Assembly (NCBI RefSeq): GCF_016903815.1
Contig: NZ_CP069972.1
Direction: 5' to 3' (one strand)
Length of the DNA: 64,000 bases
Origin: Escherichia coli
GTDB taxonomy: Bacteria; Pseudomonadota; Gammaproteobacteria; Enterobacterales; Enterobacteriaceae
Below the pieces are notes generated by a model, which did no database searches, was not told the DNA's origin, and worked only from the letters and a program-made list of their open reading frames with translations. A program made the translations under genes and the position numbers. Shown here piece by piece: positions 13,483 to 28,310 of the stretch; the first letter of the stretch is position 1; every line of letters begins with the position of its first letter.

Positions 13483-16180
13483 AACCTGGAGAAGGCGGTT
13501 CCCAGCGTTTATCCTGCTCCGGCGGAGGCAGTGATGCGTCATCGTTGCTGTTCGCCGCGATATAATCGCGGTAGTAGCGTTCACTTCCTTCACGGTGATG
13601 ATCCACGTCCGGTCGCGTAATCCTGTAGTCTTCGTGACCGGTACGGCCTGTCACATTATGCCAGGCAACCATTTCAGCAAAGACCTGGTTAAATTGTTTG
13701 TCGTTTCCTTCTGGTTCAAAACCCATGCGTGGATCACGCCCGAATAATACCGGTGCAATCAAATCCAGTTTATCTGCCAGCGCATTGCGGTCATGGTGAT
13801 TACGGAAAACAACCCTGTCACCATAATCCGTACAGACAAACTCTCCCGTCCGACGATCACGGAAACGAACACTCCCGTTCTTCTGCAAACGGGCCTCGAG
13901 ATCACCGGTATTACCGTATACCGGCGTTCCGCCCGGTTCACAAAGCACGACACAGCGGTCTGTTGTCGTTGTGCGTGACTTATCTTTACGGCGATCGCGA
14001 TAATCCCAGCCTCTCAGCTGCGATACAGCAGCCCTGTCTCCCTGAGCAGCCTGAATTTCGACCCACTGACGGTAAGAGGGTGGATACCACTTCCCGTCAG
14101 CAATAAGTTTCTGCCGCTCATTCCTGATGTCTTCTTTCAGCCTGATCAATGCCTGCATTCGCTGAACTTCTGCAATGTGATAATGCAGCTTACGTAATGC
14201 CGGATCATCGTACTGCGCACGAATGTGTGACTTCCGCAGACGGCATGCCTGATGAATTTCCCGACAACGTTCCCCATAACGCAGATCTGGTTTACGCCAT
14301 TGTTCACGCCATGCCAGATAGCGGGCACGCAGGTCAGCACGGGCCTCAGCTCTGGCTTCACGTCGCTGCCGGCGCAGCATTGGGTCACGTTTACTGCTGA
14401 CCCCGTACCTGTCACTGACAGCCAGCTCCGGGTTATAGCGACTTTCAGGTTGCACCCTGTCAAACAAATCTGCTGGGGCACTCACAAAAGGTCCGGCCTG
14501 TGGCTCTGCACGCCCCAGAGTCAGATCAGGATGAATGCTGCTGGCCTTCACCGGCGTTTGCTCATGATTAAAGGCATCAACGACAACAAGCCCGTGATGT
14601 TGTTTCTGTAGCATCAGTCCCTGTTGTGCAAACAACTCATGACAACGCTGCCAGGTAAACTCACCCTGTGTGATCATTTCTTCAATCTGAGGGCTACAAT
14701 GGCTGATGCTGTATCCCCACAGACTTTCTTTGTCAGAAAACAGTTCGCGTTTGATAGCCCCCTGCGGCCCCGTACCTGTACGCATACGGTGCCATTCTTT
14801 ATCGGTCGCAGGACAGCTCTCCATACGACGACCACGGAAGCGTTCTGTTGGCGTAACCTGGAGGAAAATATCTGTTGGTACAGGCTGCCAGCCACCATCG
14901 AGTTGATTCACATTGTCGAGCGTCAGCAGTGACCATACGCTGTCAGCACGAACGGGAGTCTGGTTATGATCATAACCGTCACAGATAACCAGGTGACCAT
15001 GCTGAACACGCATCCATAATCCCGCTTCAGCCAGTGTGCGGTGAATAGCCTGGCAGTTTTCCAGCCGTCCTTCCCGTGCCATTTCCGGCAGACGTTCTCC
15101 AAGATGACGACAGGCATACTGCTGCAGACTTTCTGTTTCAGCGATTTTTTCCGGGCGAACATCAGCTGCAATGAAGTCCGGATTATAGCGTCCTGGTGCT
15201 TCCACCTGGCTGAAAATGTCTTTTGGTACTGGCGTGTAGTCACCCATTTTTTTCATGAGTTTTTCTGCACACCAGGAGGGACCAAACGAGTCAAGCTGTA
15301 CACCTTCCCTGTTGCGATCCCAGCCATCCATCACCAGAAATTTTCCGTCCATCTGAGACAGGTACAGACCATCTTCCGCAAGACGACGATGCAGGGATAA
15401 CCAGTCATTTACAGGTTCACTGCGTAAACCAGCGACCGCTGTCTGCGCGACATACTCGCGAAAAGTTTGTTTTTTTCCGCGTGTCCAAGCGTTCTGGCGA
15501 TCACGTTCAACGGCAGTTTTGCGAACGATACGATTTCCCGGCGCATGGACCCAGCAACCGTTATCCGGAGCAAAACCATGCTTCAGTTCAAGCTCACGGC
15601 AGGCACGACTGAGTTTTTCCTGACTCCATGATAATCGGTTCAGATAACCCGTTTCAGGGTGTACCCGGTTAACAGCCACATGGACGTGCAGATTATCTGT
15701 ATCAGTATGCACGGCAGAGACATACTGATGGTCGGCAAGGCCGAGTGATTTCAGCGTATGACGTACACTGTCATAAATCTGTTCCGGACGCGGGCTTTCA
15801 TGTGACTGCCAGGAAAGGATGTAGTGAAAAACAGGATCAGTGTCATCTTTTGCATAGTGTGCCTGCCGGGCAATGTACTCCATATCTGCAGCGGCAGTTT
15901 CAAGAGAAGTACAGTTATGAAAGCAGGTGACACCATAAAAGTTGACCCATTCGCAGCCGTCCTTCATGACATCAACCAGCGCCACGAATGACTCATTTCG
16001 AAGACGTGTCGCATAATCAACAAGGCGACTGAAACGGCTTCGGTGCGGTTGTTCAGCCTGCGAAGAAGAAGATAAATCCAGTTCCTCATCGGTCATGTCA
16101 TCCCGGACAGAGACGTAGGATACCAGGTCTTCGAACGAAGACTTGCCGTCCCTTCTCTTTTTCGGAATGACTGCATTCAC
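13481..16180 (-). CDS. nikB: Relaxase NikB (899 aa)
   Basis: HxH relaxase motif in LHVHVAVNRVHPETGY; GTG start with SD GAGGA; directly downstream of nikA and adjacent to oriT; 899 aa as R64 NikB (recollection). Confidence 0.85.
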   Translation of the reverse strand: MNAVIPKKRRDGKSSFEDLVSYVSVRDDMTDEELDLSSSSQAEQPHRSRFSRLVDYATRLRNESFVALVDVMKDGCEWVNFYGVTCFHNCTSLETAAADMEYIARQAHYAKDDTDPVFHYILSWQSHESPRPEQIYDSVRHTLKSLGLADHQYVSAVHTDTDNLHVHVAVNRVHPETGYLNRLSWSQEKLSRACRELELKHGFAPDNGCWVHAPGNRIVRKTAVERDRQNAWTRGKKQTFREYVAQTAVAGLRSEPVNDWLSLHRRLAEDGLYLSQMDGKFLVMDGWDRNREGVQLDSFGPSWCAEKLMKKMGDYTPVPKDIFSQVEAPGRYNPDFIAADVRPEKIAETESLQQYACRHLGERLPEMAREGRLENCQAIHRTLAEAGLWMRVQHGHLVICDGYDHNQTPVRADSVWSLLTLDNVNQLDGGWQPVPTDIFLQVTPTERFRGRRMESCPATDKEWHRMRTGTGPQGAIKRELFSDKESLWGYSISHCSPQIEEMITQGEFTWQRCHELFAQQGLMLQKQHHGLVVVDAFNHEQTPVKASSIHPDLTLGRAEPQAGPFVSAPADLFDRVQPESRYNPELAVSDRYGVSSKRDPMLRRQRREARAEARADLRARYLAWREQWRKPDLRYGERCREIHQACRLRKSHIRAQYDDPALRKLHYHIAEVQRMQALIRLKEDIRNERQKLIADGKWYPPSYRQWVEIQAAQGDRAAVSQLRGWDYRDRRKDKSRTTTTDRCVVLCEPGGTPVYGNTGDLEARLQKNGSVRFRDRRTGEFVCTDYGDRVVFRNHHDRNALADKLDLIAPVLFGRDPRMGFEPEGNDKQFNQVFAEMVAWHNVTGRTGHEDYRITRPDVDHHREGSERYYRDYIAANSNDDASLPPPEQDKRWEPPSPG

Positions 16181-16190
16181 CGGAGAATCC

Positions 16191-16523
16191 TCAACCTTCC
16201 ATTAACTGTTTACGCAATGTATTTGTAAGTTCGGTTATGGCAACAAGCACTTCTGCGTATTCCTTGTCACCGGTTCTTTTTCCCTGAACAAACAGATGCT
16301 TCTGCATCCTTCCCAGTCTCATTAACTCCTTCAGAAAAGCATCATCTGTCCGGGAGTTAATTCGCTTATTCAGTGCTGCATTTCGGATGTAAGCAGATAC
16401 AGTAAGTCCGGAATCTTCAGCATTCTTACAGATAGTTTCATCCTCATCCGGTGAGAACCGGACCGCTCTCAGGATCGTCTTTTGCCGTCTTTCACTACCA
16501 CTTCTTTGACGTTTATCACTCAC
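16191..16523 (-). CDS. nikA: oriT-binding relaxosome accessory protein NikA (RHH, 110 aa)
   Basis: GTG start after AAGGAG; 110-aa product VSDKRQRSGSERRQKTILRAVRFSPDEDE... typical RHH Mob accessory protein; precedes nikB. Confidence 0.8.
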   Translation of the reverse strand: MSDKRQRSGSERRQKTILRAVRFSPDEDETICKNAEDSGLTVSAYIRNAALNKRINSRTDDAFLKELMRLGRMQKHLFVQGKRTGDKEYAEVLVAITELTNTLRKQLMEG

Positions 16524-16540: not shown

Positions 16541-16625
16541 GGTGTCGGGGCGAAGCCCTGACCAGGAGGCAATTGTATAATCGCGCGTGCGCGGTTATAC
16601 AATTGCACATCCTGTCCCGTTTTTC
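16541..16625 (+). other. oriT: Origin of transfer (oriT) with predicted nick site
   Basis: Perfect 10-bp inverted repeat AATTGTATAA/TTATACAATT (16571-16604) followed 10 bp later by ATCCTG^T (nick predicted 16614/16615) resembling the IncP nic motif; leading genes then point toward this site. Confidence 0.65.
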
Positions 16626-16755
16626 AGTCCATTATAGCCTGTTATTTTTGTGCATCATAGTCTTATGCAGACGGCAGAGGCAGGGCGCAGCCCTGCCAGG
16701 AGTCAGTTTTTGATGATAAAATCAGGCTTCAACATTAAACGGAGAGAAAGTGCCA

Positions 16756-17091
16756 ATGGCGTCTAAAAAATTTTACTCAGATGATGACATCCAGCTGGCA
16801 AAAGCTGCTTTATCGGAATTGCCAGACCTCACCGCTCAACGGAAAACATTGCGTGATTTTCTTGATGCCATTCGTGATGACATCATTATCCTGGTAAGGA
16901 CAAAGGGTTATACACTGACAGATGTTCGTGACACGCTCAAAAATGCAGGATATGAAGTAGGAGAGAAAGCACTTCGTGACATTATTCGGGAAGCAGAATC
17001 GAAAAAACCATCCCGCCGTTCTTCCTCTAAAACAGCACCTAAAAAGACAGACTCAGGCAGGAAAGATGGCATCGATATGAACAACAATTGA
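16756..17091 (+). CDS. Hypothetical protein adjacent to oriT (112 aa)
   Basis: ATG at 16756 after GGAGAGA; basic Ser/Lys-rich C-terminal tail; unusually on the + strand for a leading-region gene. Confidence 0.4.
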   Translation: MASKKFYSDDDIQLAKAALSELPDLTAQRKTLRDFLDAIRDDIIILVRTKGYTLTDVRDTLKNAGYEVGEKALRDIIREAESKKPSRRSSSKTAPKKTDSGRKDGIDMNNN

Positions 17092-17176: not shown

Positions 17177-18025
17177 TCAGACTCGTGGCGGCAATGCACC
17201 AGGATAATGCCGTGCAATAATATCATTCAGTTTTTCAACAAGGTCAGAACGCTTAAAGACAATGTGTACGGTCCCTTTCTGGTAGCCACGCACCGTAAAA
17301 TATTCCCCTTCTAACAGCTTACCGACATTGTCACCGTTCCCGAGAAATTCACCATACTGCGCCCCGATGCTGTTCCTGAAGTCAGGAACGTTGCGCCCCT
17401 CCAGCAGATAAAACGGACGTACCAGGTCATCCAGTGCCTCCCGTCCGCTGCAGTCCAGCGTCACACGCCCGTTACTCCAGCGGTACAGTAGGTTTTCAAT
17501 AATTATTTTCTTACCCAGACGGCAGGGATTATTGGTTCTGTAATCCCATGACAATTTCCGGTAGACATCAATCAGCCCCTGTTCAAACGTCTGCATCTTG
17601 CTGGCATTAAGATGGCGGAATGTTGCCAGTACATTGTCCAGGGTGATTTCAGGACAGGTGTCGCTCATCAGCTGGCTGTTCCACTCATCACGCTGGCATG
17701 AACTCATGAAGGTGTACATGCCCGTATCTGTCATCAGGCGGTCCCAGATTTTCCGGTCGGCAAGACGGGTGATATTCCTTTTCGCTTCTTCCGTCTTATC
17801 CATGCGACGAACGGAATCAGTCACGCAGTCTTCAAACCCGTAAAGAAAAATATCACCTGACGCATCGAGCAGAATCTTGCGCGCTGTCGCCAGGCATTCC
17901 ATCGCCTGCATGAACAGTGCAATACCTTCGTTACGCTGCGCGATGATGCGGTCGATAGCTACAGACGGAATAACATCTGTCGTGCCGGCAGTATTCAGGT
18001 CAGCAGTGGGTAAAGTCTGATTCAT
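17177..18025 (-). CDS. Leading-region protein of unknown function (282 aa), first gene behind repeat copy A
   Basis: ATG at 18025 with SD GGAGA; large hairpin repeat immediately upstream; no recognised motif. Confidence 0.55.
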   Translation of the reverse strand: MNQTLPTADLNTAGTTDVIPSVAIDRIIAQRNEGIALFMQAMECLATARKILLDASGDIFLYGFEDCVTDSVRRMDKTEEAKRNITRLADRKIWDRLMTDTGMYTFMSSCQRDEWNSQLMSDTCPEITLDNVLATFRHLNASKMQTFEQGLIDVYRKLSWDYRTNNPCRLGKKIIIENLLYRWSNGRVTLDCSGREALDDLVRPFYLLEGRNVPDFRNSIGAQYGEFLGNGDNVGKLLEGEYFTVRGYQKGTVHIVFKRSDLVEKLNDIIARHYPGALPPRV

Positions 18026-18075
18026 CACATTGTCTCCTCATCGTCACGACTGCCGGGTCAGCCAGGTCATTTCCC

Positions 18076-18386
18076 GGAGGAGCGAAGCTCCTTCTGCCGT
18101 CCGGGTCTTCGGGGATTTCCCCGCAGTGGACCTTTCCGACGGGGGACGCTCACCACGTCACGGGGCAGTTGTCCGGGGGCAGACGCAAAAGTTTTTGACG
18201 CCTGCGGCAAAAAGTTTTGTGGCTGGTACATCTCTCCCCTGGACGACTGAAACGGGATGTGGTCATGTATGTACCCCCGGAAAGTCCGTCTGCGGAGAAC
18301 AGGCCGCAGTGCGGCGGCAGACAGGCAGAGACAGCTGCGCCATCAGGCGCAGTGGCCTTACACACCGTAAGGTGTGCAGGGAGCGC
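18076..18386 (-). promoter_or_regulatory. Family-1 hairpin repeat, copy A (ssDNA-promoter-like, Frpo/ssi-type)
   Basis: Shares about 300 bp with 21469-21964 and 27812-28310, including inverted arms CCCCGCAGTGGACCTTTCC / GGAAAGTCC(A/G)...GGGG and TTGACGC...GCGGCAAAAAGTTTTGTGG. Confidence 0.6.
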
Positions 18387-18501
18387 CGCATACGGCGCGA
18401 CTGAAGAAAAACGACGGCACAACAATGGCATGTGGTGGTCACTGGCACACCACTCCCGCACAGGTGAAAACAGAGAAAACCGCACGACATTTACAACCAA
18501 A

Positions 18502-18594
18502 AAAAGTGAAATTTCTTCACTTTTTCACGCTTATTTTTCGCGTTGATTTGGTGATTATGATGATAAAATAAAGTGAAATTTTTTCACTTTTTCA
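18502..18594. promoter_or_regulatory. Two palindromic operator-like sites overlapping the promoter of the XRE gene
   Basis: AAAAAGTGAA-N5-TTCACTTTTT (18502-18526) and AAAGTGAA-N6-TTCACTTTTT (about 18570-18594) about 70 bp apart, the second abutting the ATG at 18605. Confidence 0.5.
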
Positions 18595-18604
18595 AAGGTG
18601 TTTT

Positions 18605-18856
18605 ATGACCGGCTGGGAACTGCGAATCTGGCGAAAAAGCATGCTCTGGTCACGCGAAAAAGCGGCCAGAGAATTTGGCGTGACGCAGAGAACATGGCAC
18701 GCCTGGGAAAATGCGGAACAGGTGGACGTCACCGTCTGGAGGACCACCCAGGCACTTTCAGTCCGTGACCTGCTGCCTCACATGCAGGGGATGCGTAAGG
18801 CAGATATCATCAGGCGACTGGAAAATGAACTGGGGGAAACGGCAGGGAATGTGTGA
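18605..18856 (+). CDS. Small XRE/Cro-like HTH regulator (83 aa)
   Basis: HTH-like segment WSREKAAREFGVTQRTWHAWE; preceded by paired palindromes; convergent with the Rpn operon. Confidence 0.5.
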   Translation: MTGWELRIWRKSMLWSREKAAREFGVTQRTWHAWENAEQVDVTVWRTTQALSVRDLLPHMQGMRKADIIRRLENELGETAGNV

Positions 18857-18886
18857 GCGTGATTCACAGCCTGGCTGAATGCCAGG

Positions 18887-19069
18887 CTACTGCTCATCAG
18901 GAAACAGCTTTTTCAGTTCTTCACCGGAAAGTCCCGTGACCTCCTGAATCCGTTCCAGCGGCCAGCCTATATCCCGAAGCCGGCAGGCTATTTCCCGCGC
19001 CACTTCAAGAGCCCCTTGTTTAAAACCCTCGTCGAAACCTTTCTGTATAAGACGTTCTGCAATCGTCAT
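18887..19069 (-). CDS. Stand-alone RpnS-like small protein (60 aa), homolog of the Rpn C-terminal domain
   Basis: MTIAERLIQKGFDEGFKQGALEVAREIACRL...TGLSGEELKK aligns with the last 65 aa of the adjacent Rpn; own SD AGGAG; the longer 81-aa ORF would be encoded through the rpn terminator hairpin. Confidence 0.5.
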   Translation of the reverse strand: MTIAERLIQKGFDEGFKQGALEVAREIACRLRDIGWPLERIQEVTGLSGEELKKLFPDEQ

Positions 19070-19092
19070 GCTGTTTGCTCTGCTCCTGCTGA

Positions 19093-19119
19093 CAAAAAAG
19101 CCCGGCATTTTGCCGGGCT
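19093..19119 (-). terminator. Intrinsic terminator after rpn
   Basis: Minus-strand hairpin AGCCCGGC-loop-GCCGGGCT followed by U6. Confidence 0.5.
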
Positions 19120-19131
19120 TTGTGGTTCTCA

Positions 19132-19329
19132 TCAGTGAGTGATTTTCTTCAGTTCGTCATCGGAAAGTCCGGTAGCCTGCTTAATCTGCTCCGGCGTCAT
19201 CCCCATTTTCTGAAGCTGGCACGCAATAGCCAGGGCTTTTTCAAGCGCTCCTTCCATGCGTCCTTCCATGCGTCCTTCCATCCTGCCTTCCTGGCGACCT
19301 TTTTGCTCAAGACGTTCTGCGATAGTCAT
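19132..19329 (-). CDS. Possible intragenic RpnS-like ORF (in-frame internal start, 65 aa)
   Basis: In-frame ATG at 19329 preceded by GAGGAT at -6 to -11 (CATGAGGATAAACTGATG); product corresponds to the Rpn C-terminal domain. Confidence 0.3.
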   Translation of the reverse strand: MTIAERLEQKGRQEGRMEGRMEGRMEGALEKALAIACQLQKMGMTPEQIKQATGLSDDELKKITH

Positions 19330-20058
19330 CAGTTTATCCTCATGCTGCGGCAGACGCTCAGCCAGCGCCCGCATAAATTCCGGTGATACAGAGTCCCCTG
19401 CGTTAACGATGTAATGAATCAGAACACGCACCTGCTCGTCTGAAATTTCCACCATGACCTGCGGGAGTTTGTCCAGCAGCTCCATCATGTCACGATGGCG
19501 GATATGCTTCATCAGCAGCGTCAGTGCGGCCATCCGGCGATGGTTCATGATTTCATTGTCATCAACGACAGTGATATCAACCAGCGGAAACGGCTTTGTG
19601 TATATTTTAGCCGCAAGTGCCGGATTCTCAAAACAGTCCAGCCAGTTCATGCTGTACGGGTACGGGCTGCGCTCACCGTGATAGAACAGCACCGGAATCA
19701 CCAGTGGCAACGTTTTGTGCTGCTCCAGATGTCTCTGCATCGCCGCCACACTGTAGCGTAACATGCGAAAAGGCATGTACAGATTTTCTGTGCTCTGGTG
19801 CTCGATGAGCGTATAAACATAACCATCTTCACCCCCGGTGGTTTTCACGCTCCAGAGGATATCGCTGGCGTACTGATGCAGGTCCGGCTCAACAAAGGTG
19901 GCGGGTTCCAGCTTCAGCGTGGACAGGTCGCACAACTGCCGGTACTCCGCAGGAAGATGCAGTTCCAGAAAATCCCTGGCAACGTCGGGATTCGCCAGGA
20001 ACGACCGGAACGCGGCATCATGCGGCGTGGGCGTTGTGGTGTTTTTCTTCTTACTCAC
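19132..20058 (-). CDS. Rpn family recombination-promoting nuclease (YhgA-like, PDDEXK), 308 aa
   Basis: YhgA-like N-terminal region (LIEHQS...) and conserved C-terminal domain (IAERLEQKG...TGLSDDELKK); GTG start overlapping the stop of the upstream ORF. Confidence 0.6.
   Translation of the reverse strand: MSKKKNTTTPTPHDAAFRSFLANPDVARDFLELHLPAEYRQLCDLSTLKLEPATFVEPDLHQYASDILWSVKTTGGEDGYVYTLIEHQSTENLYMPFRMLRYSVAAMQRHLEQHKTLPLVIPVLFYHGERSPYPYSMNWLDCFENPALAAKIYTKPFPLVDITVVDDNEIMNHRRMAALTLLMKHIRHRDMMELLDKLPQVMVEISDEQVRVLIHYIVNAGDSVSPEFMRALAERLPQHEDKLMTIAERLEQKGRQEGRMEGRMEGRMEGALEKALAIACQLQKMGMTPEQIKQATGLSDDELKKITH
19249..19284. repeat. 12-bp tandem repeat x3 inside rpn (encodes EGRMEGRMEGRM)
   Basis: TCCTTCCATGCG repeated twice plus variant TCCTTCCATCCT; in frame. 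Confidence 0.6.
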
Positions 20059-20444: not shown

Positions 20445-20620
20445 TGTTATCTCCAGCCCTCCCGGGCCCTGAATGAAAGAGAATCTGTTTCCCTTTTCTG
20501 TTTTTTGTGGAGACACCATGCAACACAGACGTCGTGATGTTTTTCATCTTGCTCACGGTTCCTCCTGGTAAAGTACCTGAACACATCCTGCCACCTGCAC
20601 AGGCAGACGGCAGGGGTTAA

Positions 20621-21414: not shown

Positions 21415-21468
21415 GAAAACGTCTCCTTCTGCTGAATCAGGTCGCCGGGCCGACCGGTTGCTCCCCCG

Positions 21469-21964
21469 GAGGGGCGAAAGCCCCTTCTGCCGTCCACTTC
21501 TTCGGGGTTTCTCCCCGCAGTGGACCTTTCCGATGGGGCAGCGACTGCCACGGCACGGGGCAGTTGTCCGGGGGCAGACGCAAAAGTTTTTGACGCTTGC
21601 GGCAAAAAGTTTTGTGGCTGGTACATCTCTCCCCTGGACGGCTGAAACGTGTTGTGGCCGCTTCAGCCCCCGGAAAGTCCACAGCGGGGAAACAGGCCGC
21701 AGGGGGGGCGGCGGAAGGGCAGACAACTGCGCCATCAGGCGCAGTTTCCTTACACACCGTCAGGTGTGCAGGGAGCGCAGGTCACGGCGCGACAGAGGCG
21801 GCGCGACCGGAACGGTCGCTGCAAGCCTGGTTTTTCAGACATCGGACCGTAGCGGCAGCCCGAAACCGCGCCAGCGGGTTCGGCGGAGACTGGCGGGTGC
21901 GCCAGCAGCTGCCTGTCGGAGTCGGGCCTGACGACCGGATGCCGCCAGGCAGCCGGGAGCCGAA
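21469..21964 (-). promoter_or_regulatory. Family-1 hairpin repeat, copy B
   Basis: About 500 bp shared with copy C and about 300 bp with copy A; long imperfect inverted repeats. Confidence 0.6.
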
Positions 21965-27811: not shown

Positions 27812-28310
27812 GAGGAGCGAAAGCTCCTCCTGCCGTCCACTTCACAGGGGTTTCTCCCCGCAGTGGACCTTTCCGATGGGGGCCCGTTTACCGCCTCACG
27901 GGGCAGCTGTCCGGGGGCGGACGCAAAATTTTTTGCCGGGTTCATGGCTAAAAATTTTGTGGCCGGTGCATCTCACCCTGGACAGATGGAACGGGAGGGG
28001 GTTACGTCTGCCCCCCGGAAAGTCCACAGCGGGGAAACAGGCCGCAGGGGGGGCGGCAGGAGGGAGGACTGCTGCGCCATCAGGCGCAGTTTCCTCACAC
28101 ACCGTCAGGTGTGCAGGGAGCGCAGGTCACGGCGCGACAGGGGCGGCGCGACCGGAACGGTCGCTGCAAGCCCGGGTTTTCACGCATCGGACCGTAGCGG
28201 CAGCCCGAAACCGCGCCAGCGGGTTCGGCGGAGACTGGCGGGTGCGCCAGCAGCTGCCCGTCGGAGTCGGGCCTGACGACCGGATGCCGCCAGGCAGCCG
28301 GGAGCCGAAG
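27812..28310 (-). promoter_or_regulatory. Family-1 hairpin repeat, copy C (upstream of ssb)
   Basis: Near-identical to copy B over about 500 bp; homology ends at about 28310, right where the group II intron begins. Confidence 0.6.

Follow-up and report, generated by a model that had tools for sequence, protein, structure and literature searches.

What does a regulatory gene do in the leading region of a conjugative plasmid when it is read against nearly all of its neighbours? The question is raised by a 64-kb stretch of Escherichia coli DNA (contig NZ_CP069972.1; hereafter the window), which is an IncI1 resistance plasmid. An 83-amino-acid (aa) protein, named YgeA in database sources, is encoded there on the + strand (18605-18856), downstream of two near-identical palindromes, here called O1 (18503-18523) and O2 (18570-18590). 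An earlier note on this DNA had suggested that the protein is a repressor made once the plasmid is double-stranded, which could shut off the leading region or the adjacent Rpn module. We consider it likely that YgeA is a dimeric, Aca2-like autorepressor of the XRE type, which is predicted to bind O1 and O2 and would be expressed only from double-stranded DNA.

The locus is common. The 501 bp around ygeA occur at an identity of at least 95% in approximately 2,000 PLSDB plasmids from Escherichia, Salmonella and Shigella, nearly all of them conjugative and IncI1-type. The orthologue on pESBL, Hp21 (O3K_25942), is 98% identical, and both operators are present there. Literature searches on YgeA found no functional study. 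The gene of the same name on the F plasmid (Couturier et al.) was set aside as a different gene, as it has the leading orientation and lies downstream of Frpo1.

YgeA, its promoter and the strand that encodes it

The + strand open reading frame (ORF) noticed earlier is confirmed. It begins with ATG, 4 nt after the Shine-Dalgarno sequence AAAGGTG (18594-18600, +), and its product matches the Pfam helix-turn-helix (HTH) families HTH_31 (E=1e-4) and HTH_3 (E=0.022), the former of which is also matched at E≤1e-3 by 11 of 18 family members. NCBIfam gives only sub-threshold similarities, to VC1465, MqsA and HipB (12-15 bits against cut-offs of 62-79). An AlphaFold (AF2) model built from the family alignment has a predicted local distance difference test score of 88.9 and five helices (residues 3-12, 17-24, 28-35, 42-60 and 65-81), and its Foldseek fold matches include HipB, SinR, HigA2, Aca1/2 and C.BclI. 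Judged by these profile matches, which place it in the Pfam XRE clan, and by the compact modelled fold, in which helices 2-3 make up the HTH, YgeA is an XRE-type HTH protein, as had been supposed. The family is small: an exhaustive HMMER search of 1.8 billion representative proteins yielded only 79 relatives at E≤1e-3, with the common N-terminal motif MTGxELRLWRK..W....AA.ELGV.LRTY..YE.

Both palindromes upstream of the gene are exact. O1 is AAAGTGAAATTTCTTCACTTT (AAAGTGAA-ATTTC-TTCACTTT), with perfect 10-nt arms at 18501-18510 and 18516-18525, and O2 is AAAGTGAAATTTTTTCACTTT (AAAGTGAA-ATTTT-TTCACTTT). Each is 21 bp long and each lies inside a 29-nt direct repeat, the two copies of which are 93% identical. 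Their starts are 67 bp apart, close to the 70 bp given in the earlier note; the spacer, which was put there at five or six nucleotides, is five in both. The pattern AAAGTGAA-N5-TTCACTTT has exactly two matches in the 64 kb where 0.02 are expected, which excludes chance, and three matches were seen in none of 100 shuffles.

O2 does lie at the gene's own promoter, as had been claimed. It directly follows an extended −10 element, TGaTAAAAT (18561-18569, +; TG at 18561-62, TAAAAT at 18564-18569), which puts the predicted transcription start (about 18576) within O2. O1 is located beyond the −35 region, at a distance of about 55-65 bp upstream from the predicted start (O1 centre about −54 to −63). 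A −35-like hexamer, TTGATT (18543-18548, +), is weak and stands 15 nt from the −10. A divergent minus-strand promoter beneath O1 and O2 was also considered; its elements (GTGAAA-16-TATCAT) are present in the window and in one IncI1 variant (L016), in the other loci no such promoter is conserved, and it was dropped as a general mechanism. A 65-aa RefSeq 'hypothetical protein', WP_024187428 (18374-18571, +), is annotated across the right flank of the ssi element that lies left of O1, O1 itself and the ygeA promoter, and is probably a spurious call over regulatory DNA.

The orientation of the gene acquires its meaning from the direction of transfer. In an annotated record that is 100% identical to the window, the order is nikB and nikA (−), the origin of transfer (oriT), yggA (+), a DUF4942 gene (−), a non-coding stretch and ygeA (+), followed on the right, all on the minus strand, by an ORF resembling the Rpn C-terminus, Rpn, three small ORFs, ardA, psiA, psiB, a parB-like gene and ssb. 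The leading genes are thus on the minus strand, as the earlier note had it, except that yggA joins ygeA on the other. The sequence CATCCTG/T in the nick region (16608-16615, +) fits the MOBP nick consensus, YATCCTG/Y. Because this motif is on the + strand, with nikA and nikB to its left and the leading genes to its right, the + strand is the transferred strand, and it enters the recipient with coordinates rising. The minus-strand leading genes use the transferred strand as template and ygeA does not; its sense strand is the transferred strand, and it could therefore be transcribed only after complementary-strand synthesis. The nick motif and the gene order in this way bear out the suggestion of expression at the double-stranded stage.

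The operator motif across plasmids and viral contigs

The DNA of homologues with 44-60% protein identity came from Enterobacter, Mixta, Citrobacter and Apirhabdus plasmids as well as metagenomic contigs, and operators were compared in 11 loci whose proteins are 44-100% identical. The motif [A/T]AAGTGNA-N5-TNCACTT[T/A] stands upstream of the HTH gene in every locus of the 44-60% class. The O2 centre lies 24-26 bp before the ATG in 10 of the 11 loci, L002 being the exception at 34 bp, and in all of them O2 comes directly after TAAAAT or a sequence that differs from it by one base. A second site is found in all but one (L003, which has O2 only), 54-57 bp upstream of O2, or 67 bp in IncI1-type loci, while one locus (L015, 5856-5987) carries three operator-like sites at intervals of 55-56 bp. 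All invariant columns of the multiple alignment but one, which is in the interval between O1 and O2, belong to O1, the −10 or O2; a conserved −35 is absent.

Relatives of only 32-35% identity on viral contigs, in entirely different contexts, also have the motif upstream of the gene, as AAAGTGTC-N5-GACACTTT, and by our own reading of the sequence it contains a −35-like hexamer, TTGACA. This occurrence is the strongest computational evidence for an operator role. The sequence comparison indicates that AAAGTG-N9-CACTTT is a property of the protein family and not of the IncI1 backbone, and, since the motif accompanies genes of the family on plasmids and viral contigs alike, O1 and O2 are very probably YgeA operators.

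It is the primary sequence that is kept, and not the capacity to pair. Predicted hairpin stability ranges from −3.5 to −16 kcal/mol across loci while the sequence is conserved, and in L016 half-site position 7 differs between the arms (GTGAA against GTGTA), which breaks the hairpin pairing and leaves the AAAGTG/CACTTT core intact. Covariation between protein and operator, VTQRTW with GTGAA as against VSLRT[WY] with GTGCA, was considered and rejected: the L016 protein has VTLRTW and mixed GTGAA/GTGTA half-sites, so that position 7 seems tolerant and no covariation is claimed.

The position of the gene is conserved as well. Relatives of ygeA occupy the same place on MOBP plasmids of Enterobacter, Leclercia, Citrobacter and Mixta. 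Homologous loci with enough flanking sequence have the same order, with the relaxase gene and nikA (−), a yggA-like gene (+), one to four leading genes (−), a G+C-rich hairpin region, the HTH gene (+) and then the remaining leading genes (−), which include those for an N6 methylase and antirestriction proteins, hok, psiA/B, a parB-like gene and ssb. Other MOBP plasmids thus preserve both the synteny and the opposite orientation, with the HTH gene next to the hairpin of the oriT-proximal single-stranded DNA (ssDNA) promoter. In every plasmid examined ygeA has its template on the non-transferred strand and lies back-to-back with that promoter.

More distant relatives (35-37% identity, 35-47% over the HTH) are arranged differently. 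They occur on the IncL/M plasmids L007 (pOXA-48; 16130-16264) and L013 (6001-6258) and, at 35-37% identity, in L014. All three are co-directional with their neighbours and inside operons, and the opposite-strand architecture is therefore a trait of the subfamily. In L007 and L013 the gene is translationally coupled in an operon with a gene for an Mrr-type restriction endonuclease, and no comparable AAAGTG palindrome was found upstream of the HTH relative in either. In L014 there is a related palindrome, ATGTGACA-N3-TGTCACTT, with one mismatch, 56 bp before the ATG.

The closest solved relative of YgeA is Aca2 (Aca2_YdiL/DUF1870) of phage ZF40 (PDB 7VJO/7EZY). The E-value against 7EZY is 3.7e-7 for the family profile and 7.8e-4 for the YgeA sequence alone, and Aca2 is also the top Foldseek match (29% identity; TM-score normalised to the target 0.37-0.42). 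The two proteins have the N-terminal pattern MTxxEL..RK......AA...G.VS.R.WxxWE in common. Aca2 is a dimeric autorepressor; the two similar inverted repeats that it binds lie in the promoter and 5′ untranslated region of its own gene. It is encoded on a mobile element rich in anti-defence genes and damps expression after entry (PMC6765145). YgeA is not a member of the Pfam family Aca2_YdiL (PF08965), which it does not match and which only one of 18 family members matches, at E=0.045. At 83 aa it consists of helices only, whereas Aca2 (about 115-125 aa) has in addition a C-terminal mixed alpha/beta dimerisation domain. The operator core is AAAGTG in YgeA and TTCG in Aca2. While Aca2 is the last gene of an acr operon, ygeA is monocistronic and convergent to anti-defence genes, with operators only at its own promoter. 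RNA binding in the manner of Aca2 is not expected, because the predicted start lies inside O2 and the ygeA mRNA would not contain a full operator hairpin. A 44%-identical subgroup on viral contigs (L023, L024 and L033) has another inverted repeat, TTCGTAA...TTACGAA, from about 100 to 30 bp before the HTH start, the TTCG core of which recalls that of the Aca2 operator.

Reach of the regulator and its surroundings

An autorepressor may also control other genes, and the earlier note had proposed the leading region or the Rpn module as targets. Searches of the window, and of a related complete 93-kb IncI1 plasmid that is identical over the 501-bp query, found no further operators above chance with up to two to three mismatches, and a plasmid-wide YgeA regulon was therefore rejected. 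The single two-mismatch site, AAAGAGAATCTGTTTCCCTTT (20476-20496), lies in an ORF upstream of Rpn, has both GTG/CAC core triplets broken and is probably due to chance, with 0.2 such sites expected per plasmid. The convergent neighbour is not conserved, being in different plasmids the Rpn tail, an N6 methylase gene, an antirestriction cluster or a psiA/psiB cluster. In isogenic laboratory matings, transposon sequencing of pESBL scores Hp21 as 'non-essential 1.00' in both maintenance and transfer (PMC4288162). These results give no support to a shut-off of the leading region or the Rpn module by YgeA. The establishment genes of IncI1 are run from ssDNA promoters, which conversion to double-stranded DNA switches off (PMC12672017), and this is already explained by the hairpin form being lost. 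A local or accessory role of YgeA is favoured by the data over that of a master switch for the leading region.

The gene does lie where the earlier note placed it, between a repeat copy and the Rpn module. The repeat (copy A; 18073-18404, +), directly left of O1, is an ssi/Frpo-like, class-1 ssDNA promoter element, further copies of which are at 21465-21796 and 27812-28138; ssi1-3 of IncI1 have been described as class-1 ssDNA promoters (PMC12672017). On the + strand copy A forms a long ssDNA hairpin at about 18031-18340 (z=−8.5), and it drives the DUF4942 gene (17177-18028, −), the oriT-proximal leading gene. An Rfam scan of 16-23 kb found no relevant family. Between the large ssi hairpin and O1, within the repeat copy, there are also three short G+C-rich stem-loops with 4-nt loops (18335-18410): GCTGCGCC-ATCA-GGCGCAGT, ACACACC-GTAA-GGTGTG and GCGCCG-CATA-CGGCGC.

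On the other side, the convergent neighbour is the 81-aa ORF resembling the Rpn C-terminus (18887-19132, −), the stop codon of which is 30 nt from that of ygeA; it is context and not a demonstrated target. It lies downstream of Rpn (19132-20058, −) and duplicates the Rpn C-terminal segment, the DNA repeat (18909-18960 against 19145-19196) being 79% identical. HTH_Rpn_C is matched in a homologous locus. Rpn itself has, at about 19250-19300, a tandem repeat that codes for GRME. A G+C-rich hairpin, AGCCTGGC-TGAAT-GCCAGGCT (18868-18888), sits exactly between the stop codon of ygeA and that of the convergent Rpn-tail ORF, with a U tract on neither strand.

The other + strand gene, yggA (16750-17091; YggA of R64, Orf35 of pCTX-M3), offers a parallel, as it also runs against the leading orientation near oriT and is conserved on the same plasmids. 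Deletion of orf35 in pCTX-M3 raised mobilisation more than 200-fold and changed nikA, nikB and traH transcript levels (PMC6112013). It differs from ygeA in encoding an unrelated protein with no recognised DNA-binding motif and in having no YgeA-type operator near it. Its annotation as 'molybdopterin-guanine dinucleotide biosynthesis protein MobC' is evidently mistaken.

How YgeA would act, and the alternatives

On entry of the plasmid as a single strand ygeA would be silent for want of a template, and after complementary-strand synthesis its unrepressed promoter would fire. YgeA dimers would then fill O1 and O2, which bracket that promoter, and occupation of O2 would cover the −10 and start region and hold ygeA at a low, autoregulated steady state. 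A comparable circuit is known from Bacillus plasmid p576, where Reg576, an autoregulated repressor of the establishment region, is absent from a new host and permits a transient burst of expression until it accumulates (PMC6294495). Reg576 resembles the proposed YgeA in being a plasmid-encoded autoregulated repressor; it differs in its fold, which is ribbon-helix-helix, and in having four promoters with operators, among them those of the establishment genes, whereas YgeA is an HTH protein with operators at its own promoter only.

Several points weigh against this explanation. It is not obvious what would be gained from a gene whose only target is itself, and the account therefore lacks part of the function of YgeA. 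The palindromes, with their flanking A/T runs, fit the terminator consensus in homologous loci. The arginine aligned to Aca2 R30, which is needed for repression, is near-invariant in the family alignment and is replaced by alanine in the viral-contig subgroup that keeps the motif, which makes the model of DNA contact uncertain. Finally, the −35 is weak and unconserved across homologous loci; activation may therefore be required at this promoter, and the effect of O1 could be positive. The benefit of the circuit may lie in a roadblock or terminator placed at the boundary of the operon, in antisense transcription that enters the convergent operon, in coupling of supercoiling to the adjacent hairpin, or in targets in trans, off the plasmid.

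The alternative that survives best keeps YgeA as the ligand of O1 and O2, and adds to the sites, in plasmid loci, a second purpose as weak terminators, or as roadblocks reinforced by YgeA, for transcription from the convergent operon. We regard this as possible, though clearly less probable than autorepression alone. The evidence for operators and the terminator-like features both apply to it, and the A-run left of O1 extends two to four bases past the core in most plasmid loci, which would give leftward transcripts a tail of five to seven U residues. However, the additional A/T runs might just as well be part of an ordinary AT-rich promoter or of a UP element. In this respect the earlier note's own refuting alternative, that the palindromes act only as a terminator, fares poorly as a sole explanation, and an added terminator role may be real.

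The weak −35 points towards a different logic, that of the controller (C) proteins of restriction-modification systems. C.AhdI, C.BclI and C.Esp1396I are five-helix XRE HTH proteins of about 75-85 aa that form dimers. Their own promoters carry paired palindromic operators, and they serve as delay devices once a new host has been entered. YgeA is of similar size and fold, with C.BclI among its Foldseek matches, and it could be a timer in which YgeA bound at O1 first activates the −35-less promoter and O2, filled at higher concentration, then represses it. A conserved −10 without a conserved −35 would suit such a device, as would the relation between the sites: in the GTGCA group O1 is the perfect consensus while the overlap with the −10 alters an outer base of O2, and the O1-O2 spacings fall into two classes (54-57 and 67 bp) about one helical turn apart. 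We nevertheless find it doubtful. Both sites are perfect in the window, an extended −10 can work unactivated, the O1 centre has no fixed activator position, and L003 has only O2. Nor is there an arrangement like that of C-boxes, in which two sites stand side by side within about 35 bp and overlap the −35; the YgeA sites are 54-67 bp apart. A C gene, moreover, precedes a restriction endonuclease gene, whereas no gene lies downstream of ygeA.

A broader role may be built on the conserved placement of ygeA. On the F plasmid the corresponding part of the leading region is converted last, at 120-180 s (preprint 10.64898/2026.01.09.698686). YgeA might accordingly be a conversion-gated switch at the last-converted end of the leading region, in which a burst of synthesis followed by binding to O1 and O2 closes, or briefly re-opens, the window of zygotic induction; this suggestion is tentative and in our estimate rather unlikely. 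The ygeA promoter would become usable only once synthesis of the complementary strand arrives at the hairpin of the oriT-proximal ssDNA promoter. Such a switch could work by three routes. Bound YgeA could form a nucleoprotein roadblock, or a terminator, that stops transcripts from reading through into the oriT-proximal operon and oriT; transcription of ygeA could run antisense into the convergent leading operon; or transcription-driven negative supercoiling could control cruciform extrusion of the adjacent ssDNA promoter. Its timing would be set by activate-then-repress logic of the C-protein kind.

That the palindromes are not protein sites at all, and are bidirectional intrinsic terminators or insulators which halt leftward transcripts of the convergent operon before the ssDNA-promoter hairpin and oriT, is improbable. 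The case for it is that each site consists of an A-run, a stem and a T-run, that as RNA the window sites fold into hairpins of −6.5 to −9.9 kcal/mol and those of several homologues into hairpins of −10 to −16 kcal/mol, and that a consensus scan picks out both sites on the minus strand in L008 and, in L004, O2 on either strand. The stops of ygeA and the convergent gene are also 0-60 nt apart, sometimes overlapping, so leftward transcripts would meet no other obvious terminator before O2 and O1. But pairing alone would suffice for a terminator, and it is the primary sequence AAAGTG...CACTTT that is conserved; the mismatches in both stems of L016 are uncompensated, and stability, which falls to −3.5 kcal/mol, is unconserved. 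The window sites have only two G-C pairs and are not flagged by the scan. The fixed register of O2 to the −10 and ATG would be hard to account for in a terminator, as would the sites on the viral contigs, which have G/C flanks and no T runs and, again by our own reading, the −35-like hexamer inside the motif. The motif is found only beside genes of the YgeA family.

Two further proposals carry little weight. The sites could belong to a host regulator such as CRP and have no connection with the adjacent HTH gene. The CRP consensus is TGTGA-N6-TCACA, and the GTGA...TCAC of the IncI1 version is reminiscent of its half-sites, but we think this very improbable: the window spacing is GTGA-N7-TCAC and not N6, and most family sites are GTGCA/TGCAC or GTGTC/GACAC, lacking the CRP core, and lie only beside YgeA-family genes. 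It is likewise highly unlikely that YgeA is an antitoxin, or an essential repressor of a toxic neighbour such as the Rpn nuclease module, as the weak hidden Markov model similarity to the HTHs of the HipB and MqsA antitoxins and the adjoining Rpn module in IncI1 might suggest, because ygeA is monocistronic and convergent with no co-directional operon partner, its neighbour is not conserved across plasmids, no operator is present at the Rpn genes, and the pESBL orthologue tolerates transposon insertions.

Meaning for plasmid establishment

The timing of events in the leading region is under active study, both for ssDNA promoters and for delayed strand conversion, and attention has been almost all on the genes read from the transferred strand. 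ygeA, for which an operator can now be predicted, is among the few conserved leading-region genes that should be unreadable from the incoming strand. If YgeA regulates only itself, it is an ordinary autorepressor of minor consequence. Its position would still make the gene a natural, built-in reporter of the conversion of single-stranded DNA into the double-stranded form at the oriT-proximal end, and the protein a candidate regulator of the hand-over from establishment to the established state. The link to Aca2 carries the idea of HTH repressors associated with anti-defence genes from phages to conjugative plasmids. The AAAGTG-N9-CACTTT motif provides a simple binding test and a search key for further targets. 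From its sequence and setting, YgeA is best described as an uncharacterised, widespread and apparently autoregulated XRE/Aca2-like repressor, with an unusually well-defined predicted operator and a position that would be gated by the strand on which it is encoded.

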